The position numbers and the translations under genes are program-made. A model generated the notes under the pieces. That model had not been told where the DNA came from. It worked only from the letters and a program-made list of their open reading frames with translations, and did not search any database. From Candidatus Bathycorpusculum grumuli (GTDB lineage Archaea; Thermoproteota; Bathyarchaeia; Bathyarchaeales; Bathycorpusculaceae), in NCBI GenBank assembly GCA_009776805.1, contig WRNB01000002.1, positions 1-59,066 of the forward strand: DNA of 59,066 nt, given 5' to 3'. Below, piece after piece: positions 8,475-40,329 of this stretch; the stretch's first letter is position 1; each line of letters begins with the position of its first letter.

Positions 8475-9704
8475 CTAATAGTAATAAGTATGTGTTGTGG
8501 GTGTACCTAAGAAATGCTCACACAGATACCTATTTACAGCCCCTACGTCAACATCTGCAAATAGATCAGGTTGAAGCCATTTTGCAAAAGCCAAATACCC
8601 AATTACTGAACGTGCACCATTTCGTGCATTAAAATCACAAACATAAACACGTCCATTCTTCACTGCATCAATATCCTTAAATTGTTGATTATTAAGCACA
8701 GCGTTTCTGGCATTAATAAAATCTTGAGAACTATGACTATTGCTAGAAATCATTACAATAATTACAGCAGGATTTTGTGCAACAATAAATTCCGGATTTA
8801 ACGCAGGATTGTATAATGTAACGTTTTCAGCTATGTTAATTCCACCGCCTTGACAAATAGATAAATCAACATAAGTCCTGTATTCCCCAGAAATGTACCA
8901 ATCCAAGAAGGCAAGATCTTGTTTGTCACGTGGTAAATTGTTTAGTTTGTCTTTGATCTGTTTGTTATAGGACTGTACCCATGTGATATACTCGTTTGCT
9001 CGATCTTCATTACCTACTAGAGCGGATAATTGTTTCACTGTGTAACAGATATCATCTATCTTTGTGTTAGCATTGTATATTTCTTGAGAAGACATTTTTG
9101 ATGGATTAATTGGTTGTGAATCCGCTGAGCTTTCAAGAAAAACCGGTATACCAGCTTTTGTAACTATGTTATAGGTATCTAAATCCGAATACGCAGGGTT
9201 AGAAGTATATCCAAATTGTGAGCTAGCAACTATTAGATCAGGTTCCATTACAAATATCGACTCTGCACTAGCCATAAAGGCCATTGATGCTATAGACGGT
9301 AATGTTTGAAGTTCTGGAGTTACAACAGTATCTGTTCTGGCTATAATTGAATCCTTTGCGCCTAGCAAAAATAGAATTTCTGCGAGGCTATCCTCCATGA
9401 CAATTATCCGCTTTGGTGTATCAGGTAAGGTAATTTTGACACCTGCGCCATCAGTAATTGTAACGGTTTTTGAATCAGAGCTGCTGGATGAAGAAGAACT
9501 AGATTTATTACGTGTGTCGGATGAGCTAGATGAGTTGGATGAGTCATCTGTTGATGAGGAGGGATTGTTGGTAGAAGGGTTTGATGATGATGGCAAGTTT
9601 GTTGAGGATTGTTTGTAGAATTCGTTGTAGACTGCATAGAAGGATACCGATGCTATGATGACAATAAGGGCTAGAGCAATTACTGTTTTGATTTTTGGAC
9701 CCAT
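8475..9704 (-). CDS. ABC substrate-binding protein, cobalamin/Fe-chelate (class III) family, paralogue A1
   Basis: N-terminal TM anchor, Ser-rich linker, ITDGAG...PKRIIV, EPDLIVA, AVKNGRVY. GGAGGTGA precedes ATG 9704. Confidence 0.88.
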   Translation of the reverse strand: MGPKIKTVIALALIVIIASVSFYAVYNEFYKQSSTNLPSSSNPSTNNPSSSTDDSSNSSSSSDTRNKSSSSSSSSSDSKTVTITDGAGVKITLPDTPKRIIVMEDSLAEILFLLGAKDSIIARTDTVVTPELQTLPSIASMAFMASAESIFVMEPDLIVASSQFGYTSNPAYSDLDTYNIVTKAGIPVFLESSADSQPINPSKMSSQEIYNANTKIDDICYTVKQLSALVGNEDRANEYITWVQSYNKQIKDKLNNLPRDKQDLAFLDWYISGEYRTYVDLSICQGGGINIAENVTLYNPALNPEFIVAQNPAVIIVMISSNSHSSQDFINARNAVLNNQQFKDIDAVKNGRVYVCDFNARNGARSVIGYLAFAKWLQPDLFADVDVGAVNRYLCEHFLGTPTTHTYYY

Positions 9705-9850
9705 TTTTTCACCTCCACACACATAGAATTAGTTTTAATTTTCCAAAAATTGGTATTATGATTATTTTCGATCCTACAAAGACTTGGGGTTATGATTGTT
9801 TTTTACTCTCCAGAGATTTAAGGTTTACCATTGGATTAGTCAACAACATA

Positions 9851-12949: not shown

Positions 12950-14059
12950 TTATGGATAGCAGTAGACACCTATTATGGGTGTATCAAAGAATTGTTTGTT
13001 TATTTGCTGTGTTACATCTTCTAAGTCGATGTCTGTGAAGAGTTCTGGGTGAATACATTTTGCCCAATATAAGTAACCAATTATGGCGCGTGGTCCGTTT
13101 CGGGCACTAAAGTCACAAACATATACACGACCATTCTTTACTGCATCCACATTTTGGAGTTTTGGTTGATTAAGTATATCAGTTTTAACTGCAACAAAGT
13201 CATTGGCATCATGTGTGGAGCTAGAAATTAGCTCAATAATCACTGAAGGGTTCTGTGCGACAACAAATTCAGGGCTTAATGTAGCTGAGTACATTAATTG
13301 TTTATTTGCAATATTTACGCCACCAGCCTGATAAATACCTAAATCGCCCCATGTATTGTAGGGGTAGTCATACCAATCAAGAAAGACAGTTACTTGTTGG
13401 TCCTGAGGTAATGCCGCTACGCGGTCTTTGACAATCTTATTGTAAGATTGCGCCCAATTGACATATGCCGTTACTTCTTTTTGGTGTCCTACTATAGAGG
13501 TTAGGTTTTGCATTAAAGAGCATGTATGGTCTATTATTGTTGGGTAATTGTATAATTGTTCTGATGTCATGTCTATTGGATTTGTTAGGGGTTCGGGAGC
13601 GTTTGTGTTTGCAATGTATATGGGTATACCAGCGTTTTGAAGTTGTGGATAAGCACCTTCATTGTAGGTTATCAAGTTGCCAGAAATTATAATGTCGGGT
13701 TCTAGTTCAAGTACTTCCTCAACATTGAGGTAATAGGCATTTTCGCCTACAAGAGGTACGTCTATCATTGATGAGGGTAAAACGACATCGCCTGTTCGCC
13801 CTACTATCAAATTCTCAGCACCCATGCCACACAGAGTTTCTCCAAGACCTGCATCCATGACAATAACGCGTTTTATTGGGAGCTGTACGGTAACGGTATT
13901 GCCGACGCCATCGATAACGGTAATGGTTGTTGGTTTAGTGTTACGGGTAAACAAATTGTGAGATGATCCAGAGGAGTAGAATTCGTTGTAGATTATGTAA
14001 AGTGATGCTGTTGCAATTAAGGTGATAATAATTATATATATTACATGTTTTTTTGTCAT
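12950..14059 (-). CDS. ABC substrate-binding protein, cobalamin/Fe-chelate family, paralogue A2
   Basis: TM anchor; VIDGVGNTVTV, EEVLELEPDII, AVKNGRVYVCDFSARNGPR. Clearly paralogous to 8475-9704 and 30645-31826. Confidence 0.88.
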   Translation of the reverse strand: MTKKHVIYIIIITLIATASLYIIYNEFYSSGSSHNLFTRNTKPTTITVIDGVGNTVTVQLPIKRVIVMDAGLGETLCGMGAENLIVGRTGDVVLPSSMIDVPLVGENAYYLNVEEVLELEPDIIISGNLITYNEGAYPQLQNAGIPIYIANTNAPEPLTNPIDMTSEQLYNYPTIIDHTCSLMQNLTSIVGHQKEVTAYVNWAQSYNKIVKDRVAALPQDQQVTVFLDWYDYPYNTWGDLGIYQAGGVNIANKQLMYSATLSPEFVVAQNPSVIIELISSSTHDANDFVAVKTDILNQPKLQNVDAVKNGRVYVCDFSARNGPRAIIGYLYWAKCIHPELFTDIDLEDVTQQINKQFFDTPIIGVYCYP

Positions 14060-14299: not shown

Positions 14300-15598
14300 G
14301 TGTTACAACAAATGCAGTCCCTTATAAAAAAAGAAGAACAACACTTCATTTACCCAAAATATCAAGACAACTGCATTTCAAACATACCTGACCTACTAAA
14401 AGAAAGCTTTGAAATATACAACAAATCAACAAACAAACTCTACAATCATGAAACAGAAAAAACATGCATAGAACAAAACAAAAAAATAATACTCATAATA
14501 ATAGATGGCCTAGGATACTCCCAATTCCTAAATCAACAAAAAAATGACCCCTTTTTAACAAAACTCACCAATAAAGGCATAGTTCGACCCCTAACAAGCG
14601 TTTTTCCCTCACAAACAACCAACGCCCTAACAACCCTAAACACAGGCCTAACCCCACAAGAACACGGACTCTTCGAATACTTCATCTACCTAAAAAACAT
14701 TGGAATAATAAACGCCCTAAAATGCGAACGCATCAACTCAAAGAAAAAATCCCTCATAGATGAAGACTTTAAACCAAACAATCTCCTCCTATCAAAAGAA
14801 AAAACACTCCATGAAACACTAAATGAAAAAGGCATTAAAACCTATACACATGCACACATAACCAACGCATTTAGCACTTGTTCAAACATAATTTTTCGAG
14901 GCAGCACCATAAAACCAGCATTAAACACATCAGACTCAATCGCAGGATTACGAAAAAACATAGAAGAAAACAAAGACAAAACCGCATACTTTTTCATACA
15001 CCTACCCACCACAGACACTATCGCCCATGAATATGGACCCAACAGCCCTCAATATTACACTGAATTATCAAATATAACATACCAACTACACAGAGAATTA
15101 ATACAGAAATTAGACCCAAAAATAGCTAAAGATACACTACTATTATTAACTGCAGATCACGGTGGAGTAGATGTAGATATAGAAAAAACAGTGTATATAC
15201 CAAAAACAGCCCTACCCCTACAAACCGGAAAAAATCATGAACCAATCGCACCTACAGGAAGCTATAGAGAAATTTTTCTACACATAAAAGAATCAAAGCT
15301 CGTTGAAACAAAATTATGGTTACTTAAAAAAATCGGCGACAAAGCCCAAATAATTGAAACCAAAGAAGCAGCAGAAAAAGGCCTATTTGGCATAGGCAAA
15401 GTTAGCAAAAGCTTTTTTGAAAGAGCAGGAAACCTACTAATTTTACCATACGGTAATGAAACCATATGGTTTGAAGGCCCAAACGAAAGAAGAATTAACT
15501 ACTTAGGACAACATGGAGGACTAAACAGACAAGAGATGATAGTACCCTTTGCAGTTGCTAACCTTAAAAATTTAAGAGAAAAAACAAACCAACATTAA
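14300..15598 (+). CDS. Alkaline-phosphatase-superfamily nucleotide pyrophosphatase/phosphodiesterase
   Basis: IIDGLG, SVFPSQT (nucleophile region), DTIAHEYG, TADHG, GQHGG metal-binding motifs. Confidence 0.85.
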   Translation: MLQQMQSLIKKEEQHFIYPKYQDNCISNIPDLLKESFEIYNKSTNKLYNHETEKTCIEQNKKIILIIIDGLGYSQFLNQQKNDPFLTKLTNKGIVRPLTSVFPSQTTNALTTLNTGLTPQEHGLFEYFIYLKNIGIINALKCERINSKKKSLIDEDFKPNNLLLSKEKTLHETLNEKGIKTYTHAHITNAFSTCSNIIFRGSTIKPALNTSDSIAGLRKNIEENKDKTAYFFIHLPTTDTIAHEYGPNSPQYYTELSNITYQLHRELIQKLDPKIAKDTLLLLTADHGGVDVDIEKTVYIPKTALPLQTGKNHEPIAPTGSYREIFLHIKESKLVETKLWLLKKIGDKAQIIETKEAAEKGLFGIGKVSKSFFERAGNLLILPYGNETIWFEGPNERRINYLGQHGGLNRQEMIVPFAVANLKNLREKTNQH

Positions 15599-15639
15599 AA
15601 CCTATCAAAAATCATCTATAAGCATACAGATGAGAAAAC

Positions 15640-16509
15640 TTGAGCCACCAAATAACAACATTACCCGATGGACGCAAACTCGGATATGCTACAATAGGCA
15701 AAGGCACACCAGTCATGTATTTCCATGGCACCGCCAGCAGCCGACTTGAAATTCATCTTTTAAAACAACTTACCACAAAAGGAAAACTACAACTCATCAC
15801 ATTCGATCGCCCAGGATATGGATTATCCACCTATAAACCCCGAAAAAATCTCCAAGACATCAACAGTGACCTAAACTTTTTAGCTGACCATTTAAACATT
15901 AAACAATTCAATGTTTTAGGCTGGTCAGGGGGCGGTGCTTTTGCACTTGCATACATGACACATTTCCCTCAACGAATAAAACGAGGAATAATCGTGAGTA
16001 CACCTGATTTACCATTTGATGCCTCAACAGCACACAATATACCATTTGTCAAATATGTAATGAAACTACCATTTCTAGGTAAAATAGCCATGCGTAATAT
16101 GCGACAACAAGTGCTCAAAACCAAGGATACAGAAGCCTTTTTGCGTTCCAATCAAGGTAAACAAATGCTACGCACCTGCTCAAACCGTGACTTGACATTT
16201 TTCTCTGACCCCATATGGATGGGATTAATGCATCAATCTATAGCTGAAGCCTTTCGTCAAAACAACAGCATTAACGTGGTACTTGAGGAACACAAACTTT
16301 TCCTAAAACCCTGGAACATACCATTCAAAAATATCGGCAACAAATTAAATGTTTGGCAAGGAACAGAAGATAAAACTTGCCCTATAAAAAACGCTTACAG
16401 CATAGCTCACAAAGTTAAGGGTTGCAACTTAGAAATTTTCCCCAAACAAGGACACTGTGTCATGTTTGATAACTTAGAGAAACTAATAGAGTTGCTAAAA
16501 ACCGTTTAA
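15640..16509 (+). CDS. Alpha/beta hydrolase
   Basis: FHGTASS, DRPGYGLS, nucleophile elbow GWSGG, GTEDKTCP (Asp), QGH (His). Confidence 0.88.
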   Translation: MSHQITTLPDGRKLGYATIGKGTPVMYFHGTASSRLEIHLLKQLTTKGKLQLITFDRPGYGLSTYKPRKNLQDINSDLNFLADHLNIKQFNVLGWSGGGAFALAYMTHFPQRIKRGIIVSTPDLPFDASTAHNIPFVKYVMKLPFLGKIAMRNMRQQVLKTKDTEAFLRSNQGKQMLRTCSNRDLTFFSDPIWMGLMHQSIAEAFRQNNSINVVLEEHKLFLKPWNIPFKNIGNKLNVWQGTEDKTCPIKNAYSIAHKVKGCNLEIFPKQGHCVMFDNLEKLIELLKTV

Positions 16510-16726: not shown

Positions 16727-18040
16727 CTATTTTATGGCGTTAATTATGTCTTCGATGAGTGTTAAAGTACCGTTGAATCCTGTTATAGGGCGGTTTGTTA
16801 AGATGATTTTTTCATGGTAGGGGAAAGATGTAGGGATAAAGTGAGGTATTTTTTGTAGTGTGAGTGAAATGTTTTTTTCGATACTGCTGCCGAATAGTAA
16901 AGTTGGTTTTGTTTTGTTGAGGTAGTCTGTTATTTCGTATTGGTCAGGATTAATAAGTAGATGGGTGTTTGGTAGATTATGTGTTAAATAATTTTTTAGG
17001 GCTTCATAGTTTTTTGTGCCAATTTCTTTTATGCCGATGGTGACCGGTAACAACCCTAGATATTCGTAGAAGAATGTTGTTAAAGCGTAAACTTGTGAGG
17101 TATCTCCAAAAATGGTAAAGGGTGTACCACGGAGGTTGTTGGTGTAGGAGGAGGTTTGGGCGAGGGCGTGGTAGCATTTTTTTCTGACCTGTCGAGCTTT
17201 AGTTTTTATAATTTCGTTGGGTATTTTAAAAAATTCTGTGATAGCCTTGAACCATGTTTCAGAGGCAGATATTCCATAGGGGGCCTGTAAATTTAAATCG
17301 ATGCATGGAATGTTGTGCTCTTTTTCTAGGTAATTGGCTATTTTGTCTCCGTATTCTTCGTTGAGAATTAAGTTGAGTTCAGCTTGGCCGGCTTTTTTTA
17401 TGTTATCGATAGATTCGCCTGCGCATATTGCAGATAGCGTTTGGATGCCTAAGAGTTTGAGGGTTCGTTTAATTTCAGCGATGTCATTTTCCCAATTATA
17501 GTGGAAAATTGTGCTGCCGATAATGTTAACAGTTTGAGGAATTTTTTGTTTATTTTTATTATTTAATAGTTTGTCAAGGATTTTGATAGTGGCGTTTTGG
17601 AATCCGGATGCATATGTTCCTGTAAAGCCTGTACTGTCTATGGCTACGGTTGGAGTTTTAATGTTTGCGTTTTTTATTATTTGTGTTAAATCGTCTCCGA
17701 TAATTGAAGTACCTGAGTGGTTGATAATGCCTATGAGGCTGTGTTGTTTTAGGTCAACATGTTTGAGTGCTTGGGTGACTTTGGGCTCGCTTCCGTATAT
17801 GAAGTCTTGTTCGTCTATGTAAGTGCATGGGAGCCTGGTTTGGCCAAAATAAAAGTTAGAAAAGCATTCATCTGATTCATGTTTAGGATGGGGTGCTAAT
17901 ATGTTTGCCATGTAGGCGGTGTAGAATTTACAGCCTATAGGGCCATTGAGAAGAGTGCATGCTTCTTGAATGCCTTCAAAGGCAGCTATAGCACCTGAGA
18001 GAGAATCAGGTCTGTGGGGTGTAAGAGAGTTATTCATCAT
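16727..18040 (-). CDS. Nitrogenase component-1-like subunit (NifK/NifN/BchB-like, non-canonical)
   Basis: GAIAAFEGIQEACTLLNGPIGC, DFIYGSE, SIIGDDL, VNIIG, WENDIAEIKRTLKLLGI, AELNLIL. Overlaps the upstream fusion gene by 11 bp. Confidence 0.85.
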   Translation of the reverse strand: MMNNSLTPHRPDSLSGAIAAFEGIQEACTLLNGPIGCKFYTAYMANILAPHPKHESDECFSNFYFGQTRLPCTYIDEQDFIYGSEPKVTQALKHVDLKQHSLIGIINHSGTSIIGDDLTQIIKNANIKTPTVAIDSTGFTGTYASGFQNATIKILDKLLNNKNKQKIPQTVNIIGSTIFHYNWENDIAEIKRTLKLLGIQTLSAICAGESIDNIKKAGQAELNLILNEEYGDKIANYLEKEHNIPCIDLNLQAPYGISASETWFKAITEFFKIPNEIIKTKARQVRKKCYHALAQTSSYTNNLRGTPFTIFGDTSQVYALTTFFYEYLGLLPVTIGIKEIGTKNYEALKNYLTHNLPNTHLLINPDQYEITDYLNKTKPTLLFGSSIEKNISLTLQKIPHFIPTSFPYHEKIILTNRPITGFNGTLTLIEDIINAIK

Positions 18041-20186
18041 ATCGCCATCCTTCGATAAAGGGAATTTTTAATTTAAAGTAGAGTTTTTTAGCATAGTCTA
18101 ATCCAGAATTAAAGCCATATACAGGGAGAGTGGGGAAAAAGTCACAAGGGATATTGGCTGTTGTTAGATATCGGGCAGATAAAATAAAGTCTGGATCATT
18201 CAAACGTATAGCGTCCTCCATAAGTTTCGCCTCCGAATGTTTTATTCCCGATTTAGACAAGGGGCTTCCGTCTGATGTAAATATGTTAAAAGTACTAATT
18301 GTGGTTACTTTAACACCTATGTCCTGTAAGGCTAACTGTAGCCAGTCAATGTTAGCACCGTTAGAATTGATTAAGGCTTTTTTTCCTGCGAAAAATGGTT
18401 CTAATTGTTTCTTATCTTTTTCATATGTTACCTGAGCTTCTGTTATGAGTTTTTCAGCTAAGGCTTCTTTGTTGAATTTGCGTGCAATTGTACGTGTAAA
18501 TTCAACGGTTTGTTCAAATCCTATAGGTAGAGGAATTTGCAGTGTTTCGGTTCCGAAGTGTTGATCTAAAAAGTTTGAGAGGTCATGTACCATTTGATCG
18601 TTTGAAAGAGGGAGATTAATTTTTGCTTTTTTAAAGTTTTTTATTTCTTCTATGTTTGTTTGTCTGATGTATCGACAGTTTATTTTTATATTTAATGCAG
18701 TTAATATTTTGTTTACTTCTTTAAAGTTAGGATTTGCAGTAGTAGACAAGTTTTGTTCGCCAATAATGTTTATACCATCATCTGTTGGTCTAACAGTTTT
18801 ATCTATGAATTTTTCGGCGACTAATTTGCAGGCTGTAAGCATGCCTAAATAGAAGTCACCACCTATTACGCCATCTGTGGGTACGTGTATTATTTGCTGT
18901 TTGTTCGTATTTAATTTGGCTGTAAGAGAGTTTATATCGTCTCCGATTAAACCTACTGGGCATGCGGTTATTAGAAAAATGGGTTGTGTTGGAAATCTTT
19001 TTTGTAGGTCTGTCAAAATTTCGTCTAAATGTTTTGTTCCGCCAAATATTACATCTGTTTCCTGCATGTTTGTGCATAAAAGGTTTGATATATAGGGTGT
19101 GTTTAAGTCAGGGAGCGTGCTCTGATGGGAGCAATAGTTGATGTATGCACAACCTTGAGGAGAGTACATTAGGGCAATTGCATCGTTAATTTGACTGATA
19201 ACATTATAAGCACCAGTAAGTGAGCAACCATATAATGGTGGTTTTTCCTTTGGGACAGAAACTTGAATCGCTCTATTTGTTATACTGTTTTTGCAATCAT
19301 CCACGTTTTGAGCAGTTATTTGCTGTAAATTATTACATACACATGTTTGAGGTTGTTGTAGAATTTTTATTTTCTTTGCGCCGTAGCAGAATTCTTGTAT
19401 GAATTCTTCAAGATCCATATCTGATAGTGGTGTAGGGATTACAGGGTTAGAATGATACTCAATGTAATTAGCTATTTTAGAGTAAATATGGGCTAATTCA
19501 GTGTTGGGAGCAAATTCTATGATAGTTTTAGAGGCCAACTCTGCCTGTGGTATAATATCATTATGGGGTATGAAAGCAACTATGGTTGTTCCAATTTTTT
19601 TAGCGAACATTTCCAGTATTTGGCGTTCGTTGTTTATTCCTCGAAGGTTACCTATTATGCCACCAAGTTTTCCATTGGTGGAAGTGAAGCGTTGTAAGCC
19701 TTTGGCTATGTTGTTAGCGGCGTATATGGAGGCTATTTCGCCTGAGGATACAATGTACACTTCATCAGCATAACCGTCTCGCATGGGAACCGCGAATCCG
19801 CCACAGACAACATCGCCTAAAACGTCAAAAAATACGTAATCGAATTGTTGAGTGTCTAATCCTTGGTCTTTGAGAAGTTGAAGAGTTTGTATTATGCCTC
19901 TACCAGCACAGCCTACGCCGGGTTCTGGACCTCCAGATTCAATACATTTTACGTGATTATATCCTGTTAACATAACTGTGTCAAGTGAAACTGTACCAAT
20001 AGTGTTTAGCTGTTCAAGAACTGTCATTTGAGTAAAGCCCCCTAAAAGCAGACGAGCGGAGTCATGTTTAGGATCACACCCTATCTGTAGGATTTTTTTT
20101 CCATTTACTGATAGGGCAGCAATAACATTAGATATAGTAGTAGATTTACCAATCCCGCCTTTTCCGTAAAAAGCTATACCTTTCAA
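18030..20186 (-). CDS. NifH-type Fe protein fused to a nitrogenase component-1-like (NifD/NifE/BchN-like) subunit
   Basis: N-terminus: YGKGGIGKSTT, GCDPKHDS, ESGGPEPGVGCAGRG, DVLGDVVCGGF (both 4Fe-4S Cys). C-terminus: GCSLTGA, SPQGC, ETDVIFGG, ITACPVGLIGDD. TTG start overlaps the upstream TGA (TTGA) after GAGGAGG. Confidence 0.92.
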   Translation of the reverse strand: MKGIAFYGKGGIGKSTTISNVIAALSVNGKKILQIGCDPKHDSARLLLGGFTQMTVLEQLNTIGTVSLDTVMLTGYNHVKCIESGGPEPGVGCAGRGIIQTLQLLKDQGLDTQQFDYVFFDVLGDVVCGGFAVPMRDGYADEVYIVSSGEIASIYAANNIAKGLQRFTSTNGKLGGIIGNLRGINNERQILEMFAKKIGTTIVAFIPHNDIIPQAELASKTIIEFAPNTELAHIYSKIANYIEYHSNPVIPTPLSDMDLEEFIQEFCYGAKKIKILQQPQTCVCNNLQQITAQNVDDCKNSITNRAIQVSVPKEKPPLYGCSLTGAYNVISQINDAIALMYSPQGCAYINYCSHQSTLPDLNTPYISNLLCTNMQETDVIFGGTKHLDEILTDLQKRFPTQPIFLITACPVGLIGDDINSLTAKLNTNKQQIIHVPTDGVIGGDFYLGMLTACKLVAEKFIDKTVRPTDDGINIIGEQNLSTTANPNFKEVNKILTALNIKINCRYIRQTNIEEIKNFKKAKINLPLSNDQMVHDLSNFLDQHFGTETLQIPLPIGFEQTVEFTRTIARKFNKEALAEKLITEAQVTYEKDKKQLEPFFAGKKALINSNGANIDWLQLALQDIGVKVTTISTFNIFTSDGSPLSKSGIKHSEAKLMEDAIRLNDPDFILSARYLTTANIPCDFFPTLPVYGFNSGLDYAKKLYFKLKIPFIEGWRYDE

Positions 20187-21511
20187 TGACTAACCTCCTC
20201 TACAGTAGCTAAAGCTGGTACTACATGGGGAAGAGAAAATGTTGACTTAGAGACCTGTTTCTTGGTTAAATAATTAAGAGCAGATAGAAGGGTTTTTTCG
20301 TCTTTAATGGAGACCGCCCCTTTGTTTTTAAGTATCTTCATTTTTTCTTGAGCTTGCCCTTTTGTGTAATCTCGCAACTCTATCAGAGTTTCATCTAACA
20401 AAAAAACGGGTATACCCTGTTCTATGGCGAAAGTTGCGGCATCCAAATTTTTAATGTTACCAGGACCATATGGAAAAGATGTTACTATTACTAAATCGGC
20501 TTTTTTAATTAATCCAAGATTATCGTTGTGAGCGGATTCACTAATTGGAGACATAGGAGCTTCTGTAACTGTATGTATTTTTAAAAAACTTGTTGTTTCT
20601 TGATCTGTATCTAGCAAGTTTAAAACCCCAACAGTTACATTATAACCATCATCTGTTAAACGTTTCAAAAGTGAACTACCACTACCTGACCCACAAATCA
20701 CATGAATAGTTGAACTACGAAGAGGTACTTCATGATTAACGGATATAGGAATAATATAGGGTGTTTTAGTTATAGAGTTCTGTTTTACAACGGTATCTAT
20801 GTTGAAGATTGTTTTGATGTTTTCGCTTGTTAAAACGTCTGTTGTTCCAGCAGCAACTATTTTTCCATTTTTTAACAATACCAGAGAATCACAGTAACGA
20901 GCAGCAAGATTGAAATCATGAAAAACACCTATCACTAAAAGTTTTTTGTTGTCACATAACTGTTTGAGTAAATCCATTATTTCTAGCTGGTTTGCTACGT
21001 CAAGAAATGTAGTAGGTTCATCAAGAAGAAGAACTTGTGGCTCTTGAGCTAATGCTCGACTGATAATGATTCGTTGCCGTTCTCCTCCACTTAATTCAGT
21101 TATTAATCGATCTTGTAGGTGTAATGTTCCAGTGTATGTCATAGCTTTTTTTGCAATAGCAACATCTTTTTCACTTTCCATAGCAAAACGAGAGAGGTGG
21201 GGTGATCGCCCCATCAGTACAACATCAAGTGCAGTAAAGCTAAAAGCGATTGCTGCACCTTGGGAGACCACAGCCATTTTTTTAGCTATGTCTACAGCTT
21301 TTAAGGTGTATATGTCATCATCTTCGAGAAGTATAGTACCTGTTTTTGGTTTAAGGGTGTGACTTATGCTTTTGAGTAAAGTTGTTTTTCCTGAACCATT
21401 GGGTCCAAGAATGCCTACAAATTGTCCAGTTTGAAATTGGAAACTAATATCTTCTATGATTTTAATAGAGTCATAGTAACAGTTTATATTATTGATTTTT
21501 AAGTGTACCAT
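20183..21511 (-). CDS. BtuD/FecE-type ABC ATP-binding protein with C-terminal extension
   Basis: GPNGSGKTT, LSGGERQR, LLLDEPT, HDFNLAARYCD; about 185 extra C-terminal residues beginning HVICGSGSG. Confidence 0.92.
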   Translation of the reverse strand: MVHLKINNINCYYDSIKIIEDISFQFQTGQFVGILGPNGSGKTTLLKSISHTLKPKTGTILLEDDDIYTLKAVDIAKKMAVVSQGAAIAFSFTALDVVLMGRSPHLSRFAMESEKDVAIAKKAMTYTGTLHLQDRLITELSGGERQRIIISRALAQEPQVLLLDEPTTFLDVANQLEIMDLLKQLCDNKKLLVIGVFHDFNLAARYCDSLVLLKNGKIVAAGTTDVLTSENIKTIFNIDTVVKQNSITKTPYIIPISVNHEVPLRSSTIHVICGSGSGSSLLKRLTDDGYNVTVGVLNLLDTDQETTSFLKIHTVTEAPMSPISESAHNDNLGLIKKADLVIVTSFPYGPGNIKNLDAATFAIEQGIPVFLLDETLIELRDYTKGQAQEKMKILKNKGAVSIKDEKTLLSALNYLTKKQVSKSTFSLPHVVPALATVEEVSH

Positions 21512-21521
21512 GTTTGTTGCC

Positions 21522-22601
21522 TCATGATGTATCTACTTTTTTCTTTCTTCGCATAAGATAGAGGAAAAATGGTCCGCCACATACTGCGGTTACTACACCT
21601 ACGGGTAATTCTGTTGGGGCTATTACGACTCTTGCCAAGATGTCGCATAGTACAAGGAAAATGGCACCCATTACAGCGGATGCGGGGATTAGAATTCTGT
21701 GATCAGGTGAGAATATCATACGAGTTACGTGGGGAATGATTAAGCCTACGAAGGCTATTAAGCCGCTAATTGAGACTGCAGCGGCGGTCACAAAAGCACT
21801 GGCTATGAGGAGAATTTTTTTCATTTTTTCTAAATCTACGCCTAAATGTGTAGCTTCAGATTCACCTAGTGCTAATAAGTTTAGATCACGTGAGAACATA
21901 TAGATAACTATGGAACCAATTATTATGAAGGGAAGAGCACTCCAGACGTCAGCCCATTCCGTGTATGAGAAGCTGCCCATAAGCCAGAAGGCTGATCTTC
22001 GAAATTGTTCAGGGAAAAGGGAGTGATAAGCGTTGACGATTGCACCAAGCAGGATGCTTACGGCGATGCCTGAGAGAAGTAGAGTTTGTACAGGCACTTT
22101 AGAGCCTACTCTTGAAATTGCATAAACGAAAAATACTGTTAATAGACAACCTATGAATGCAAAAATTTGCATTGTGTTTATGCCAATTATTGTTACGCTA
22201 AGACCTACAATAACAGCTGTGGTGGCCCCTAAGGCTGCTCCTGATGAAGCACCTATTGTGTAGGGGTCTGCCATTGGGTTTCTAAATAGGCCCTGATAGG
22301 CTGCGCCTGCAATAGCTAAGGCGGCTCCTGCGAGTGCGGCGCATAAGGCTCTTGGAAAGCGTACTTGTAAAATTAGTGCTGTGTCAACAGTTGAAACTGG
22401 ATAACTAAATAGTCGGTTGAGACCAGGAGTGTTTGTGAGAAATACTTTGATTATATTAGAAAAAGGAATAGAAACATAACCTATACTTATGGATAATACA
22501 ATAGAACATGCTAATATTATAAAGAGTGTAAATAGTATGAGTGCCCATTTTTGGGTTTTGCGAGTTGCATTTGATTTTGATGATTTACTTTTATTTAACA
22601 T
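21522..22601 (-). CDS. btuC: BtuC/FecCD-type ABC permease
   Basis: VRFPRAL, QGLFRNPMADPYTIGASSGA, LGESEATHLGV, IAFVGLIIPH, ELPVGVVT. Confidence 0.9.
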   Translation of the reverse strand: MLNKSKSSKSNATRKTQKWALILFTLFIILACSIVLSISIGYVSIPFSNIIKVFLTNTPGLNRLFSYPVSTVDTALILQVRFPRALCAALAGAALAIAGAAYQGLFRNPMADPYTIGASSGAALGATTAVIVGLSVTIIGINTMQIFAFIGCLLTVFFVYAISRVGSKVPVQTLLLSGIAVSILLGAIVNAYHSLFPEQFRRSAFWLMGSFSYTEWADVWSALPFIIIGSIVIYMFSRDLNLLALGESEATHLGVDLEKMKKILLIASAFVTAAAVSISGLIAFVGLIIPHVTRMIFSPDHRILIPASAVMGAIFLVLCDILARVVIAPTELPVGVVTAVCGGPFFLYLMRRKKKVDTS

Positions 22602-22634
22602 CAGTTTTGCTCCTTTGAAAAAAAGAGAAGAAGA

Positions 22635-23579
22635 CTATGTGCTTCCAAAAATTTCTGGATGCATGGTTTTTGAAATTTCTTCTAAAGCATCAATAATTCT
22701 TGGTCCACCTCGTGAATATATGCTGTCACTGCCTTGATTGTAGACTTTATGATTTGCAACTGCATTAATACTAGACCAGCCTGGACGTCCGCTGATGTCG
22801 CTGTAGAGTAAAAGAATTATATCAGGGTTTTTGGATATGACGGCATCGGAGCTTATAATGGGGTAGGGTGTTATAGCGTCATAGAAGATGTTTGTGCCGC
22901 CAGCTAAAGTAACAAGGTCATCTAAGAAGCTGTTTGGACCCACAGCCATTAATGGATCATCAGATATTTCGATGTAAACTTTAGGTTTAACTGTTATACC
23001 TGCGACTTTATCTGTAATAGCATCAACGCGTTTTTGGAGGTTATCTACTAGTTTTGTGGCTTCACTGGTATGACCTGTTATTTTACCCACGAGTTCAATG
23101 TTATCAAATACATTGTTGACGTTTTTTGGGTTTAACACTATTACGGTGTAGCCCATGGAGCGTAGTTTAGCGGCTGCTTCATCACTTGCTCCACCGCCAA
23201 ATGCCATAACTAAGTCAGGTTCTAAAGCAATTATAGGCTCTATCGCGGGCATCCAATAATTACCAATACTGGTAATAGTACCCTCAGCAATTCCCTTAGG
23301 AACGTTAGGTGGGTAATCACAAAAATCTGTAACTCCAACAACTTGATCACCTGCACCAATCGCAAATAAAACCTCAGTGCTACTTGGTGCTAAAGAGACA
23401 ATTCTTTGAGGCACAGAAGAAATTGTTACTTCGGTACCATCATCATCGAATATAGTTATTGGACCTTTACTATTATTGTTGTCTACACCGCCATTAAAGA
23501 ATACTATAAAGGCTGCAGCTATAATAACGACAAGAACTATTGCTATGATTAAATACATCTTTGATTTTTGCATGTTCAC
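22635..23579 (-). CDS. btuF: BtuF-like cobalamin/Fe-chelate substrate-binding protein, paralogue B1
   Basis: PQRIVSLAPSSTEVLFAIGAGDQVVGVTDFCDYP, EPIIALEPDLV, SRGGPRIIDALE. Confidence 0.85.
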   Translation of the reverse strand: MNMQKSKMYLIIAIVLVVIIAAAFIVFFNGGVDNNNSKGPITIFDDDGTEVTISSVPQRIVSLAPSSTEVLFAIGAGDQVVGVTDFCDYPPNVPKGIAEGTITSIGNYWMPAIEPIIALEPDLVMAFGGGASDEAAAKLRSMGYTVIVLNPKNVNNVFDNIELVGKITGHTSEATKLVDNLQKRVDAITDKVAGITVKPKVYIEISDDPLMAVGPNSFLDDLVTLAGGTNIFYDAITPYPIISSDAVISKNPDIILLLYSDISGRPGWSSINAVANHKVYNQGSDSIYSRGGPRIIDALEEISKTMHPEIFGST

Positions 23580-23617
23580 TTCAACTTTTTTGTTAAGTAT
23601 TCAACAAATAGAAATCT

Positions 23618-23657
23618 AATAAACATTAGGTTAACGCAAATTAATTACAAGTTGATT
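23618..23657 (-). promoter_or_regulatory. Regulon promoter/operator motif heading the btuFCD-nitrogenase-like operon
   Basis: aataaa-cattagg-ttaa-cgcaaa-ttaa-ttacaa-gttgatt. Confidence 0.72.
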
Positions 23658-24003: not shown

Positions 24004-24459
24004 TTAAACACTATGTGCAGTGTCTGTGTATTCGCGTGGTAAATGTCGAAGGTCATATATTATAATTATTACCCCAGCAATAACAAACATAACAAGCACT
24101 ATAAACGATGTAAATAGAAGCACACCTATAAGCGAACGCAACGTAAAAAAAAGTTCAGCATAGTTAATAAGGTTCATTACAAGCAATACTGAACCAGCAA
24201 TTAAAAGGATAACCGCAATTTTTCCTGCTAAATGCCGGAGATCATATTTTTTAATTATTACCCCAGCAATAACTAACAGAACAAGCACTATAAACGATGT
24301 AAATAAACATGACTCAGCTCGTAGAAGTATTCCTATAGGCAAACGCAACGTAAAAAAAAGTTCAGCATAGTTAATAAGGTTCATTACAAGCAATACTGAA
24401 CCAGCAATTAAAAGGGTAACCGCAATTTTTCCTGCTTTCTGCGAATTCACACAACTCAC
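24004..24459 (-). CDS. Hydrophobic protein made of two near-identical internal repeats
   Basis: AGKIAV(T/I)LLIAGSVLLVMNLINYAELFFTLR occurs twice. Confidence 0.55.
   Translation of the reverse strand: MSCVNSQKAGKIAVTLLIAGSVLLVMNLINYAELFFTLRLPIGILLRAESCLFTSFIVLVLLVIAGVIIKKYDLRHLAGKIAVILLIAGSVLLVMNLINYAELFFTLRSLIGVLLFTSFIVLVMFVIAGVIIIIYDLRHLPREYTDTAHSV
24041..24436. repeat. Tandem direct repeat (189 bp + 207 bp copies)
   Basis: Copies 24041-24229 and 24230-24436 share long identical runs, e.g. aacgcaacgtaaaaaaaagttcagcatagttaataaggttcattacaagcaatactgaaccagcaattaaaagg. Confidence 0.93.
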
Positions 24460-24814: not shown

Positions 24815-26401
24815 CTAGTAAATGTATGTTAGAGTTATTGTTGTTTCAGTTGTTTGGGTGTCAGTGTTGCATATTTGAATTTTTATGGTTCCAGGAAGAA
24901 CTGGGAAATATGCTGTTGCGTTGGTACCTGTAGTTATTGTTTGATTGAAGATTAGTTCATTGTATTTGTATGATACTTGTGTGTAGGTTGTGGTAGAGGT
25001 TGAGTTAACTTGAATTTCCATGTATCCGGCATACGCTACGGTTTCGTTAAAGATTGTTGTTGCTGTAGTTGCATTTTGGGTGTATGTGGTATTGTTTAAG
25101 AGTATGTGTGATTCTTTGAGGTCTATGATGTTGGTGTAATTGTTGAGTTTGTCGGTTAAAGATGCAATTTGATCTTGGTAATCAGATATCTGTGCTTCAT
25201 AATTAGATATCTCACTATTAAGATTGTTAACTTGGTTTTGCAGGTCGGCAATTTGTGAACTAAAGTCAAATATCTGTTCTTCTAGAGCTGTTCTGTTTTG
25301 TTGATCGATAAAGACTACTGTAGTAAAGCTTGAGATGAGTATAATACATATTAGGCCTAAAGCAAATGTTGTATTTTTTGTTTTAACAACTTCAACTTTT
25401 CGCTCCTCACGCTTTTGTTCATTATTTGATGGTTCAAGCCAATTTCTTGATTTAAACACCGATTTGTTAACCAATTTTACTTTAAGTGCATCCTCATAAG
25501 GACACATTTCCACACATCTTGCGCAAAGCATACACTGAGAAGTGTTAATTTTTCCACCTTTTTGTTCATAGACCTCGTTGACCTGTACAGGACAGACACG
25601 TTTGCAGACACCACATTTGGTACATTTTTCTTCATCTTTATCGATGTATAGAAAAGGTAATTTTCTAAAGATTTTAAACTGGTTAAGAGATGCTATAGAA
25701 GCTCCTGCTGGACAGAAACGACACCAAACCCGACGAACAAAAAACGCTCCGATTAACGTGACTGCAACAAAAATGACTGCAAAAATTTGTCCAGGAGTTG
25801 CAGATATAAAAGTTGTAATGTCCCCTATATATGGGTAACTAAAGTTGAGACTGCCTAATTTTAGTTGCCCAATCCAAGGCACAATAAAGGGCACAAGTGG
25901 TTCTATTATCAGGCTATAGGAACGAAAAGGTCCAGCCAATCGTTGAGCCATTACCACTGCAACAGCTAAGTTAGAAGGAGGTCTTAGCAACCACAATATA
26001 ATGGGTAAAAACAGAAACATTCCCAGGATTATGTATCTACCTTTATGAAGAGCCGTGTTTAATTCAACTGGAAGAGGTCGGTGACGAATTTTAAGAGTTT
26101 TTCTTACCACATTTTCTACATCCATAAGGAAAGCAAATGGACATATCCAACCACAAAAAAATCTGCCCAAAAAAAGCGATGCCACAAACCAACCAACGAG
26201 TACATAGAGGAGAGGTATAGAAGGTTTGATGGAGAACAAATAAAATAAAGCAAATAAACTAACGATTTGAATAATAAATCGTAAAAAAGACACACGCATA
26301 GTACGATTTCGCACCCAAATCATAACTGAGAGCACACCTGCTGCTCCAAGTCCCGCTAACACAATAAGCCTAGACATATCGCTAAATAATGCTTCAAACA
26401 T
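24815..26401 (-). CDS. NapH/MauN/NosR-C-like membrane polyferredoxin, fused to a TM-coiled-coil extracellular domain
   Basis: Two CX3CP motifs (FCGWICP, WCRFCP) and two ferredoxin motifs (CTKCGVCKRVCP, CMLCARCVEMCP), then a TM helix and heptad coiled coil. Confidence 0.85.
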   Translation of the reverse strand: MFEALFSDMSRLIVLAGLGAAGVLSVMIWVRNRTMRVSFLRFIIQIVSLFALFYLFSIKPSIPLLYVLVGWFVASLFLGRFFCGWICPFAFLMDVENVVRKTLKIRHRPLPVELNTALHKGRYIILGMFLFLPIILWLLRPPSNLAVAVVMAQRLAGPFRSYSLIIEPLVPFIVPWIGQLKLGSLNFSYPYIGDITTFISATPGQIFAVIFVAVTLIGAFFVRRVWCRFCPAGASIASLNQFKIFRKLPFLYIDKDEEKCTKCGVCKRVCPVQVNEVYEQKGGKINTSQCMLCARCVEMCPYEDALKVKLVNKSVFKSRNWLEPSNNEQKREERKVEVVKTKNTTFALGLICIILISSFTTVVFIDQQNRTALEEQIFDFSSQIADLQNQVNNLNSEISNYEAQISDYQDQIASLTDKLNNYTNIIDLKESHILLNNTTYTQNATTATTIFNETVAYAGYMEIQVNSTSTTTYTQVSYKYNELIFNQTITTGTNATAYFPVLPGTIKIQICNTDTQTTETTITLTYIY

Positions 26402-29115: not shown

Positions 29116-30219
29116 TTATTTACTAAATAGTTCTGGATGGAGCATATTTGCAATATCCTCTAAAACATCTATGAATCTTGGTCCGCTTCGCGAATAAGCA
29201 TCATAATTGTATGGACTATAAACTCGCCCGTTTGCAATTGCGTTAATGTTTGACCAACCTGCACGTGCTTGAAGACTATTGATAGATGTTGATGTAATAA
29301 TTACATCAGGATTTTTAGCAATAACTATCTCGTTACTCACCTGAGGGTAAGCGGCGTTTATATCACCAAAAACGTTCACGCCACCAGCCAAAACAATAAG
29401 GCTATGTAAAAAACTGTCCGCACCTGCAGCATATGATCCAGTCAAATAACAAACATTGGGTTTATCTGTAATGTCTTCAACTTTAGTTGTTATAGCATCG
29501 ATGCGCGCTTGAAGGCTGTTTATTGTTGCTGCAGCTTTATCAGCATTACCAGTTGCTTTGCCAATAACGTCAATATTATTGAGTATTTTGTCGACACTAG
29601 TGGGGTTTAGCACTATTACAGTGTATCCTAAGTCACGTAGTTTATATGCTGCATCATTGCTTGCACCATCACCACTTGCAAAAATCAAGTCAGGATTTAG
29701 GGCCATTATAGGCTCTATTGCCGGTTGCCAATAATTACCGACGGTACTCATGTTTCCTGCTGTGATCCACGCTTTAAAGTTGTATGGGTAATTACAATAA
29801 TCTGTAACTCCGATAACTTGGTCACCTGCACCGGCAGCAAATACTGTTTCAGTTATACTGGGTGCTAAGGAGACGACACGTTTAGGAGCTGAGGTTATAG
29901 TTACTTTAACACCCTCATCATCAGTTACAGTTACGGGGAAAGCGGGAGTTGTGTTTTGGTTGGTGTTGGTATCAGTATTACTTGTTGATGTGCCAGAGCT
30001 TTCTTTGTTTTCTGAGTTGGCATTGGTTTGTGTTGGTGATGAGATGGGAGTTTTTGCAGAAGTTGATGGTGAGGTTTGAGTTTGGCCAGATTGTTGTGTT
30101 GGCGATTCAGAAGTGGGAGCGTTTGGGGATGCAATGTATTCGGTATAGATAACATAGGTTGCGGCAGATGCTATTAGAGCAATAAGGACAATTGCCACTA
30201 TTGTCATGCTTTTATTCAT
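29116..30219 (-). CDS. BtuF-like substrate-binding protein, paralogue B2, with Ser/Thr linker
   Basis: PKRVVSLAPSITETVFAAGAGDQVIGVTDYCNYP, GNYWQPAIEPIMALNPDL, SRSGPRFIDVLE; close paralogue of 22635-23579. Confidence 0.87.
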   Translation of the reverse strand: MNKSMTIVAIVLIALIASAATYVIYTEYIASPNAPTSESPTQQSGQTQTSPSTSAKTPISSPTQTNANSENKESSGTSTSNTDTNTNQNTTPAFPVTVTDDEGVKVTITSAPKRVVSLAPSITETVFAAGAGDQVIGVTDYCNYPYNFKAWITAGNMSTVGNYWQPAIEPIMALNPDLIFASGDGASNDAAYKLRDLGYTVIVLNPTSVDKILNNIDVIGKATGNADKAAATINSLQARIDAITTKVEDITDKPNVCYLTGSYAAGADSFLHSLIVLAGGVNVFGDINAAYPQVSNEIVIAKNPDVIITSTSINSLQARAGWSNINAIANGRVYSPYNYDAYSRSGPRFIDVLEDIANMLHPELFSK

Positions 30220-30644: not shown

Positions 30645-31826
30645 TCACGGATAACAATAAGCACCCACGCTAGATACACCGAAAAATTGTTGATTTAATT
30701 GTTGACTTACAACATCCGGATTAACATCTACAAATAGATCAGGTTGAAGCCATTTTGCAAAATACAAATAACCAATTACTGCACGTGTCCCACCTCGAGC
30801 ATTAAAATCACAAACATATACACGCCCATCCTTCACAGCATCCACACCCTGAAAATCAGGACGACCAAGTACGTCATTACGAGCAGCAATGAAATCATCG
30901 ACATTATGAGTAGGGCTGAGAATCAATTCAATAATTACCGCAGGATTTTTTTCAACAACAAACTCTGGACTTAATGTAGGTGAATAACTCGTTTCGTTTT
31001 CTGCAATATTAATACCTCCACCTTGATAAATACCTGATATAACAAAAGTTGAATATGGATAGCTGTACCAATCAAGAAAAACTGTAGGTTGGTCTTCACG
31101 AGACAATGTAGCTACACGATCTTTAACAAGAGTATTGTATGGTTGCACCCAATTAACGTATGCAGTTACTTGTTCTTTGTGTCCCACCACATCAGTTAAA
31201 TTTTGCATTAAAGAACAAGTATAATCCACTATTGTTTCCATAGCATACAATTCTGCAGAGGTCATTTGAGCAGGGTTTTTTGCTGGTTGAGGTTCAGTTG
31301 TATCGGCGATAAATATAGGTATGCCCTCACCTGTCAACAGATCATAGAGTTCAGTGTTGTAAGCTATCATTGAGTCAGAAATTATAATGTCAGGCTCTAG
31401 TTCAAGAATTTTTTCCACACTAGGTGAATAGGAATCAGTTCCTACAACGGGCACATTCAAAATTGATGGGGGAAAAGTTGCGTCAGTTGTTCGTCCAACG
31501 ATTAAATCTTGGCAACCCATGGCGCATAAGAGCTCTGTTAAAGCACCATTTAGGCTAACAATACGTAACACTTTATCAGGTACGGTAACAGTGCGGCCAG
31601 CAGCATCAGTAACGGTAGTGCCGGATGAGTCAGAGAATTTCTTAGCTAACGGACTATTGGCAGAGTTGGTTGGTGAAGATGGAGTAGACGGTTGTGTGAA
31701 AGAAGGCTGTTTATCAGATGAGAAAGGAGCGGGGCTGGATGTGTAAAATATATTGTAAGCAACGTAAAAAGTGACTACTACAATTAAGGCAATGAACACA
31801 GTGGCTATTATGGTTTTTTTATTCAT
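30645..31826 (-). CDS. ABC substrate-binding protein, cobalamin/Fe-chelate family, paralogue A3
   Basis: TDAAGRTVTVPDKVLRIVSL, EKILELEPDII, AVKDGRVYVCDFNARGG. Confidence 0.88.
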   Translation of the reverse strand: MNKKTIIATVFIALIVVVTFYVAYNIFYTSSPAPFSSDKQPSFTQPSTPSSPTNSANSPLAKKFSDSSGTTVTDAAGRTVTVPDKVLRIVSLNGALTELLCAMGCQDLIVGRTTDATFPPSILNVPVVGTDSYSPSVEKILELEPDIIISDSMIAYNTELYDLLTGEGIPIFIADTTEPQPAKNPAQMTSAELYAMETIVDYTCSLMQNLTDVVGHKEQVTAYVNWVQPYNTLVKDRVATLSREDQPTVFLDWYSYPYSTFVISGIYQGGGINIAENETSYSPTLSPEFVVEKNPAVIIELILSPTHNVDDFIAARNDVLGRPDFQGVDAVKDGRVYVCDFNARGGTRAVIGYLYFAKWLQPDLFVDVNPDVVSQQLNQQFFGVSSVGAYCYP

Positions 31827-34639: not shown

Positions 34640-34660
34640 TTATTTTTTTCTCCATTACTG

Positions 34661-40292: not shown

Positions 40293-40329
40293 CTATATCT
40301 AAACATCCAAAGTGTTGTCAACATATCTC

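Follow-up and report, generated by a model that had tools for sequence, protein, structure and literature searches.

A NifH-NifD-like fusion and its NifK-like partner, encoded with a BtuFCD-type importer: a candidate corrinoid reductase in anaerobic archaea and bacteria

HD-K and the described relatives of nitrogenase

Enzymes of the nitrogenase superfamily are known to act on N2, on precursors of chlorophyll and F430, and on C-S bonds. The stretch of DNA that we investigated (59,066 nt of contig WRNB01000002.1 from Candidatus Bathycorpusculum grumuli, hereafter the window) encodes a nitrogenase-like enzyme composed of a NifH::NifD-like fusion protein (HD) and a NifK-like subunit (K), whose genes share an operon with a BtuFCD-type importer. 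A previous prediction, made from the letters of the sequence, had proposed an ATP-driven low-potential reductase that acts on the imported molecule. This proposal is backed by synteny with the importer, by cobalamin riboswitches, and by neighbouring genes for CbiZ, CobN, ChlI/D, CobB and CbiA; the conserved importer synteny, the riboswitches and the cob-gene neighbours also suggest that the imported molecule is a corrinoid. HD-K probably acts on corrinoids or B12 precursors. The explanation that we favour overall is a two-component ATP-driven corrinoid reductase that is co-expressed with a BtuFCD-type importer, and we give it a probability of roughly 0.4. How the subunits assemble, which substrate HD-K takes and what reaction it performs are described below as we infer them. 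We regard HD-K as a clade of the known nitrogenase superfamily that has yet to be characterised and that stands out by its architecture; the new part is the link to corrinoids.

We placed HD-K by its scores with curated hidden Markov models from NCBIfam and by profile scores against the PDB. The Group V tetrapyrrole reductases DPOR, composed of BchL/ChlL and BchN-BchB, and COR, composed of BchX and BchY-BchZ, are similar to HD-K in organisation: an ATP-dependent reductase of the NifH type serves a heteromeric D/K-like component, the Fe protein carries the motif CDPKHDS, the [4Fe-4S] cluster predicted for the HD-K interface has the same 3+1 arrangement of ligands without a complex cofactor, and the tetrapyrrole is presumably bound directly. 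The structure predicted for K also superposes best on BchB. However, in sequence H and D are nearer to the Nif, Cfb and Mar proteins than to those of the Bch group, the fourth ligand is a cysteine and not an aspartate, H is covalently fused to D, and the genes occur in a context of corrinoid uptake and remodelling, not chlorophyll synthesis, in anaerobes that are not phototrophic. All scores with the Bch models are below the curated cut-offs (BchL 220 bits with a cut-off of 345, BchN 27 with 420, BchX 176 with 331, BchZ 65 with 529 and, for K, BchB 132 with 490), and an identity of HD-K with DPOR/COR was therefore rejected.

CfbCD (Group IV-B) is the Ni-sirohydrochlorin a,c-diamide reductive cyclase of F430 synthesis. 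It resembles HD-K in the absence of a FeMo-co-type site, in the chelatase and a,c-diamide synthase that are at times found as neighbours, and in the H component, which scores 341 bits on the CfbC model (cut-off 402). However, CfbD is a homodimer without a K subunit, whereas HD is in every case followed by a distinct K; on the CfbD model (cut-off 268) the D domain reaches 28 bits; and HD-K is found under cobalamin riboswitch control, in many bacteria, and in archaea not known to make methane. The missed cut-offs, together with the pairing of HD and an adjacent K in 82 loci, led us to reject a role in F430 synthesis.

The methylthio-alkane reductase MarHDK (Group IV-C) also consists of H, D and K components, and MarK is the best match in the PDB for the K profile (136 bits, the next match having at most 98). 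This enzyme contains P-type and L-type clusters and the full cysteine set (PMC13474568). HD-K, in contrast, has only four cluster cysteines and no equivalent of C275, its H is fused to D, and sulfur-metabolism neighbours were not seen in the family loci examined; MarHDK and IsrHDK (Group IV-F) were rejected for the cysteine count and the neighbours. Group VI from Elusimicrobia (Meheust et al. 2020) is uncharacterised as well, retains no more than four of the six cysteines of a P-cluster, lacks FeMo-co ligands, and has a tetrapyrrole role that was guessed from context. Its NifH is sister to Group V (BchL), shares about 40% identity with NifH and has radical SAM genes around it, and no fusion has been reported. 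The H domain of HD-K is 45-53% identical to NifH, which indirectly argues against a placement in Group VI, and its neighbours are importers and cob genes.

The scores with the Nif models are also below the cut-offs (nifH 353 bits with a cut-off of 394, nifD 122 with 654, nifK 67 with 427). With every curated cut-off missed, HD-K is a member of no characterised Nif, Cfb or DPOR/COR family. The original prediction held that the system matches none of those characterised; by these cut-offs it does not, although the system is not wholly unreported, the fusion and its co-location with a transporter having been mentioned before.

Operon structure, domains and cluster ligands

The five genes btuF-btuC-btuD-HD-K are located entirely on the minus strand and span 16727-23579 with gaps of 33, 10, -4 and -11 nt (Table 1; position 1 is the first letter of the window), so that the layout and gaps proposed earlier agree with the coordinates of the open reading frames (ORFs). 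The btuF-like gene starts with GTG, with an ATG two codons downstream. As to the single motif promoter of the original prediction, the only feature present is an AT-rich, TATA-like TTTATTAG about 45 nt 5' of the btuF start. Four sequencing runs, all of DNA, contain the window. The btuD/HD junction has the sequence GAGGAGGTTAGTCATTGA, in which the TTG start of HD overlaps the TGA stop of btuD and is preceded by a Shine-Dalgarno-like GAGGAGGT about 8 nt 5' of it, and the K start ATGATG sits within the final codons of HD. The overlapping starts and stops and the GAGGAGGT at the btuD/HD and HD/K junctions are signs of translational coupling. Full-length homologues of HD (719-743 aa, 70-76% identity) are present in independent assemblies, and the same five-gene order is found in the family loci L090-L094, L001, L087 and L140. 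Given these homologues and the recurring gene order in L090-L094, the fusion is not an assembly artefact, and the H-D fusion recognised in the original prediction is real.

Table 1. Coordinates of the HD-K operon, the domains of HD, and other corrinoid-related genes in the window.
Feature	Position	Strand	Evidence or remarks
5' leader with putative archaeal promoter region	23580-23657	-	AT-rich; TTTATTAG about 45 nt upstream of btuF start
BtuF-like substrate-binding protein, 314 aa, N-terminal membrane anchor	22635-23579	-	Pfam Peripla_BP_2, 8.8e-35
BtuC-like permease, 359 aa	21522-22601	-	Pfam FecCD, 2e-97
BtuD-like ATPase, 442 aa	20183-21511	-	Pfam ABC_tran, 1e-32
HD, NifH::NifD-like fusion, 718 aa, TTG start	18030-20186	-	Fer4_NifH (4-266), 3.5e-98; Oxidored_nitro (321-673), 1e-58
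H domain, aa 1-270, NifH-type ATPase with [4Fe-4S]-bridging cysteine pair	19377-20186	-	Fer4_NifH, 3.5e-98
Flexible linker, aa 271-319	19230-19376	-	pLDDT <50 over residues 271-319
D domain, aa 320-718, NifD/E-like, three cluster cysteines, no FeMo-co ligands	18030-19229	-	Oxidored_nitro, 1e-58
K, NifK-like subunit, 437 aa, one cluster cysteine (C37)	16727-18040	-	Pfam Oxidored_nitro, 2e-72
Second coupled operon	32245-42327	-	About 9 kb from HD-K operon; Pfam
ChlI/D fusion	40330-42327	-	Pfam
FecCD permease	39219-40292	-	Pfam
ABC ATPase	38392-39222	-	Pfam
CobN	34661-38395	-	1344 bits
CbiZ	33851-34639	-	Pfam
ABC-2 ATPase	32991-33854	-	Pfam
ABC-2 permease	32245-32994	-	Pfam
Peripla_BP_2 substrate-binding proteins	8475-9722, 12950-14059, 29116-30219, 30645-31826	-	Pfam, 2e-35 to 2e-19

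The Pfam matches to Fer4_NifH in HD and to Oxidored_nitro in both HD and K place the two proteins in the nitrogenase superfamily. In the AlphaFold2 (AF2) model of HD (mean pLDDT 78) two confident domains are joined by a disordered linker, whose length and sequence differ among family members. The P-loop GKGGIGKS, the motif CDPKHDS, C93 and C128 of the H domain are all invariant in the family alignment. CDPKHDS, which the original prediction had pointed out, is a marker of the family, being present in 78 of 86 H domains from fusions; NifH encoded by a separate gene mostly has CDPKADS (65 of 70). The likeness to BchL that had been read from it is true of the motif but not of the H domain as a whole, which is nearer to NifH and CfbC than to BchL in the model scores given above. 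Among solved structures, the H domain matches NifH from M. acetivorans with 1.9e-90 and BchL with 2e-46, and its predicted structure superposes on the former (6nzj) with a TM score of 0.92 at 53% identity. The fold search with the whole of HD was dominated by NifH matches and is uninformative on the D domain.

Three cysteines of the D domain, C321, C346 and C409, are invariant and correspond to C62, C88 and C154 in an alignment to A. vinelandii NifD. The position of the FeMo-co ligand C275 is a serine in the HD of the window and a cysteine in none of 21 family members, and the region of the other FeMo-co ligand, NifD His442, does not align with the D domain. In K, C37 is invariant and is located at the position of NifK C95 and BchB D36; a near-invariant Asp12 occupies the position of NifK C70, and a serine or proline that of C153. 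The structure of K was predicted from database homologues (AF2, pLDDT 86.6). Of the beta-type subunits it fits BchB from DPOR best (TM 0.83-0.87, root-mean-square deviation 2.8-3.0 A); the values for NifK, AnfK and VnfK are TM 0.79-0.81 and about 4 A. The cluster cysteines, three in D and one in K, are conserved in three family alignments. Four cysteines at the D/K interface suggest a [4Fe-4S] cluster of the DPOR/COR kind, and neither a P-cluster nor a cofactor site. The 3+1 pattern, as read from the alignments, fits a cluster of this type as a mechanistic likeness, not as membership in the DPOR/COR family. The GD(Y/F)xQG loop of the D domain corresponds in the alignment to the residues of NifD (189-195) that line the FeMo-co pocket. 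Candidates for contacts with the substrate are this loop and further invariant residues, namely D444, C504 and R505 of the D domain and D12, E22, F65 and R69 of K.

These ligands bear on two alternatives that remain close to the canonical nitrogenases. A true nitrogenase (Nif/Vnf/Anf) was rejected because C275 is absent, four rather than six P-cluster cysteines are present, and all equivalog cut-offs are missed. The 45-53% identity of the H domain to NifH might suggest a divergent enzyme that still reduces N2; however, with FeMo-co ligands absent, a four-cysteine cluster, no nifB or nifEN seen in the window and the Nif/Vnf/Anf cut-offs missed widely, this reading is effectively refuted by the ligand pattern, and we give it next to no chance. 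The original prediction had found no other nif genes nearby, and the searches agree: among the window ORFs of at least 70 aa only HD and K match the H, D or K queries, and no nifB is found among the 35 window ORFs scanned with Pfam. HD-K might also function as a maturase. The profile of the D domain scores best against NifEN (178 bits, compared to 174 for a NifD, 162 for MarD and 82 for BchB), and co-location with a transporter has been noted (PMC3464626). However, there is no cysteine at the position of NifD C275 or the NifE cofactor site, the cluster cysteines are four in all, the importer is of the chelate/corrinoid (FecCD) type and not a free-metal type, and the B12 riboswitches, CbiZ and CobB point elsewhere, which makes a maturase very improbable.

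Some relatives of HD have other domain arrangements. Proteins of about 1090 aa (P0062-P0081; L028 2627-5884) are triple fusions (H-H-D) in which D is preceded by two complete NifH domains, and P0083 (968 aa) appears to combine H, a partial D and K in one chain. The H-H-D fusions imply that the H2 dimer is the working unit, in which case two HD chains with a single H each must pair via their H domains. We infer one H2 per (DK)2, a built-in half-site arrangement.

Genomic context and proposed function

The importer genes encode the full BtuFCD set of Pfam domains, Peripla_BP_2, FecCD and an ABC ATPase. For the permease and the ATPase, B12-family models are the best NCBIfam matches, at scores below the cut-offs: the BtuC-like permease matches the archaeal vitamin B12 permease BtuC (PRK09535) best, with 325 bits (cut-off 461), and the ATPase the corrinoid ABC transporter ATPase PRK09536, over residues 3-345, also with 325 bits (cut-off 537). 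For the BtuF-like protein, the best matches are the PGF-CTERM substrate-binding protein model (163 bits) and BtuF (116 bits, cut-off 234), both again below cut-off. The BtuD-like ATPase has a C-terminal extension of about 185 aa (20183-20747, minus strand) that was absent from the original prediction. Its orthologue in L001 carries PF27219 (MJ0874) at the C-terminus, and the haloarchaeal corrinoid ATPase model PRK09536 also spans this extra domain, which may have a regulatory role.

The fusion is widespread. The HD search returned more than 100 full-length fusions from Bathyarchaeia, Methanolobus, Tepidibacter, Chloroflexota and Acidobacteriota, and the carriers of the family are anaerobic archaea and bacteria; the nearest relatives are from termite-gut and other Bathyarchaeia. 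The K profile recovers at most 579 clusters at 50% identity (E <= 1e-30), and the bimodal distribution of scores to the K of the window indicates that the family is discrete. Most family loci came from a metagenome scan with the K-like alignment. From the genome scan with the HD alignment we obtained only about 16 true fusions; most of its matches were canonical nifHDK loci, which we reused as controls. Of 102 loci with a K-family gene, 86 contain a fused HD, and most of the others are cut by contig ends; K follows HD wherever both are readable. The synteny of importer, HD and K is kept across Bathyarchaeia, Methanolobus, Methanomassiliicoccales and bacteria. A FecCD permease is encoded near HD-K in 34 of the 102 loci, and in 13 of the 31 with at least 5 kb on both flanks, compared to 1 of 66 canonical nifH controls.

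Cobalamin riboswitches provide evidence that is independent of sequence similarity. An Rfam scan of 51 family loci detected RF00174 in 12 of them (16 aptamers in total), a single c-di-GMP aptamer being the only other riboswitch, and no cobalamin riboswitch was found in six canonical nif control loci (137 kb). The riboswitch precedes the order BP-BP-ABC-FecCD-HD-K (where BP is a binding protein) in L140, FecCD-ABC-HD-K in L150, and a TonB receptor followed by HD-K in L113. It is located immediately 5' of HD in L007 and in L131, the latter having a second, divergent one before BP-FecCD-ABC; in L005 (Tepidibacter), the riboswitch leads a DUF4430 gene divergent from HD. On a Bacteroidota-like contig (L126, 9225-15860), HD-K adjoins a riboswitch-led locus with a TonB receptor, DUF5074 and Mfa-like/DUF4465 proteins, which we take to resemble the BtuB/BtuG/BtuH systems for surface capture of B12 in Bacteroides. 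Bacterial operons of the same type as in the window (L140, L150, L131 and L143) belong to the B12 regulon by this measure, and the placement of the riboswitches puts the bacterial HD-K family in this regulon. We know of no B12 riboswitches from archaea; in the window, the linkage to cbiZ and cobN supports membership of the importer in the B12 regulon. In L007 (7492-10828, Peptococcaceae), a second, unfused nitrogenase-like set in the order D-K-H is located directly downstream of the riboswitch-controlled HD-K.

Genes for corrinoid metabolism are recurrent neighbours. CobN is found in 11, CbiZ in 9 and ChlI/D in 6 of the 102 family loci; a RamA-type corrinoid activase with MoxR/VWA proteins is present in three, an ABC-2 exporter in five and a CbiK-like chelatase in one. 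Several of these genes form operons with HD-K: cobN-chlI-chlD-cbiZ-HD-K in L156, cbiZ-chlI-chlD-BP-btuC-btuD-HD-K in L166, cobN-HD-K in L014 (Methanomethylophilaceae), BP-HD-K-cbiA-cbiZ in L158, and cbiZ-BP-FecCD-ABC-HD-K-cbiK in L003 (Methanolobus psychrotolerans). The other neighbours are heterogeneous and include TonB receptors, methylmalonyl-CoA mutase, one CobA adenosyltransferase and three proteins of PF01261, the superfamily of CbiR (PMC7733943). A Pfam scan of 72 flanking ORFs that otherwise carried no label revealed no further dominant partner. In Dialister succinatiphilus (L068, 10001-21770), unfused H, D and K genes are followed by CobN, ChlI and ChlD; the D and K proteins score 64 and 84 bits, under the family threshold, and this set suggests that the link to the chelatase is not confined to the fused clade.

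Under the corrinoid reductase that we favour, the two tethered H domains would dimerise around a [4Fe-4S] cluster and bind MgATP. The H dimer would dock on the D/K pair and pass single low-potential electrons to the interface [4Fe-4S] cluster, held by three cysteines of D and one of K, and from there the electrons would move on to a corrinoid that the D/K cavity binds directly, with no FeMo-co-like cofactor in between. The cobalt would be reduced to Co(I), so that the scavenged corrinoid could be adenosylated and then enter remodelling of the CbiZ type. The substrate of CbiZ is adenosylated cobinamide, so that an imported corrinoid has to be brought to Co(I) beforehand. ATP-driven Fe proteins reach the potential of the Co(II)/Co(I) couple, which is about -0.5 to -0.6 V. 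HD-K would then be a functional analogue of CobR, which follows CobB and CobN in the late-cobalt-insertion pathway. The substrate need of CbiZ, the CobR step after CobB and CobN, and the matching potential are the reasons why we tentatively prefer a cobalt-centred reaction, Co(III)/Co(II) to Co(I). In the production of Co(I) corrinoid HD-K would resemble CobR and the activases RamA/RACo, CobR in its pathway position and RamA/RACo in spending ATP to push an electron uphill. However, the folds are unrelated, RamA/RACo act on protein-bound corrinoids, and the proposed equivalence comes from gene context only. It is also possible, though far from assured, that anaerobes have their long-missing ATP-driven corrinoid reductase in this widespread clade as a whole (H::D with K, and the H-H-D variants), which would belong to the B12 regulon and produce Co(I) or, with CobN/ChlID, swap or strip the metal.

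Several points weigh against a corrinoid reductase. About half of the family loci are without a recognisable corrinoid neighbour, and the CobA adenosyltransferase is next to HD-K in only 1 of the 72 flanking ORFs. The importer proteins score under the curated BtuFCD equivalog cut-offs, and FecCD-type systems also import haem and siderophores. Riboswitch control fits cobalt scavenging or a biosynthetic step equally well. Salmonella manages without such a machine, its flavodoxin reducing the cob(II)alamin that is bound to the adenosyltransferase, and a dedicated ATP-driven reductase is thus not obviously required. Finally, all characterised nitrogenase homologues that act on tetrapyrroles (DPOR, COR and CfbCD) reduce, to our knowledge, C=C bonds of the ring and not the metal.

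The last point leads to an alternative explanation, in which HD-K is a ring reductase of tetrapyrrole or corrinoid biosynthesis or repair that, similar to CfbCD, hydrogenates C=C bonds in a precursor that is either imported or endogenous, such as a corrinoid a,c-diamide (metal-free or with cobalt) or a corrinoid that has suffered oxidation or damage. The reduction of ring carbons by the characterised relatives, the 3+1 cysteine cluster and the BchB-like fold of K would all agree with this. So would the gene content of a few loci, in which chelatase, a,c-diamide synthase and reductase mirror the logic of the Cfb pathway: the CbiK-like chelatase is encoded in L003, and a CobB/CbiA a,c-diamide synthase in four family loci (L087, L088, L158 and L163, with CobB/CfbB-like proteins), that of L087 scoring 552 bits on the CfbB model (cut-off 560) and 550 bits on the cobB model. 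An unidentified tetrapyrrole pathway has also been guessed in a paper on termite-gut Bathyarchaeia (PMC7886697). However, ring reduction is not required in any known step of B12 salvage, HD-K goes together with uptake genes (BtuFCD, TonB receptors) and CbiZ rather than with early cbi genes, and the D domain has little similarity to CfbD (see above). We consider this explanation unlikely.

The CobN and ChlI/D neighbours suggest yet another role, in which HD-K, together with a CobN/ChlID class I chelatase, would exchange the metal of imported metallo-tetrapyrroles, remove cobalt (or haem iron) from them reductively in order to scavenge it, or re-metallate metal-free corrinoids. HD-K forms operons with CobN and ChlI/D in L156, L166, L165, L148 and L014, and the window encodes both as well; an accompanying ABC-2 exporter could expel the emptied ring, and FUR-family regulators are encoded in 2 of the 72 flanking neighbours. 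Cobalt-acquisition genes are likewise controlled by riboswitches, and HmuS, a CobN homologue, reportedly acts on haem iron in Bacteroidota. However, CobN occurs in only the 11 loci mentioned, CbiZ and CobB/CbiA in the neighbourhood speak for retention and rebuilding of the corrin ring, and we know of no precedent for the enzymatic removal of cobalt from a corrin; this role is quite improbable.

Previous reports and the remainder of the window

The fusion and its co-location with ABC transporters were mentioned in passing by Dos Santos et al. in 2012, the fusion as data not shown, and the fused sequences were excluded from that analysis (PMC3464626). A 2024 survey lists the fusion (PMC11237513), and the study of termite-gut Bathyarchaeia refers to a "NifDH homolog" with a guessed tetrapyrrole role (PMC7886697). 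A 2026 Chem Rev review of nitrogen-fixation-like (NFL) enzymes calls the uncharacterised clades the main open problem of the field and does not mention the fusions or a link to B12 (PMC13474568). Our literature search found no paper that ties the HD-K clade to B12, cobalamin riboswitches, CbiZ or CobN. Through the riboswitches and the synteny, one large clade gains a testable class of substrates, the corrinoids. How anaerobes produce Co(I) corrinoids for adenosylation, in salvage and in late synthesis, is a gap for which HD-K is a candidate; if our reading is true, the salvage of vitamin B12 by archaea and by bacteria of gut and sediment is connected to the nitrogenase superfamily. The fused genes may also explain part of the pseudo-nifH signal in metagenomes from gut and sediment (PMC8597730), and the tethered H-D and H-H-D forms could aid the study of half-site reactivity in electron transfer of the nitrogenase type. 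Experiments are feasible, since Clostridium tetanomorphum, Tepidibacter hydrothermalis, Methanolobus psychrotolerans and a Methanosarcina are cultured carriers.

A second operon of corrinoid type, which was absent from the original prediction, is located in the same window (Table 1). Its genes are separated by gaps or overlaps of 37, -4, -4, 21, -4 and -4 nt, and they also flank HD-K in L156, L166, L165, L148, L014 and L013. CbiZ, CobN, ChlI/D, a second BtuCD and five BtuF-like proteins are encoded within 25 kb, and the HD-K operon and the second operon make the window a corrinoid-salvage island. The five BtuF-like Peripla_BP_2 genes (including that of the HD-K operon) are dispersed over 8.4-31.8 kb, and there are only two sets of permease and ATPase. 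Five binding proteins for two transporters suggests that several related ligands are captured for shared transporters.

The gene at 24815-26401 (minus strand), between the two corrinoid operons, encodes a membrane polyferredoxin with a Fer4_5/NapH-like domain, a 2x[4Fe-4S] domain, a coiled coil and a Thr/Asn-rich tail, and a homologue is found upstream of btuF in L091; that the polyferredoxin is the electron donor is speculation. A type I phosphodiesterase/nucleotide pyrophosphatase (PF01663) and an alpha/beta hydrolase adjoin the operon (14300-16509 on the plus strand; 11915-14200 in L091; 4967-6259 in L001). They are conserved in close relatives, and a function in processing the nucleotide loop of cobamides is conceivable. 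The gene at 24004-24459 (minus strand) encodes a small membrane protein with an internal tandem duplication, in which a segment of about 30 residues, AGKIAV(T/I)LLIAGSVLLVMNLINYAELFFTLR, occurs twice.

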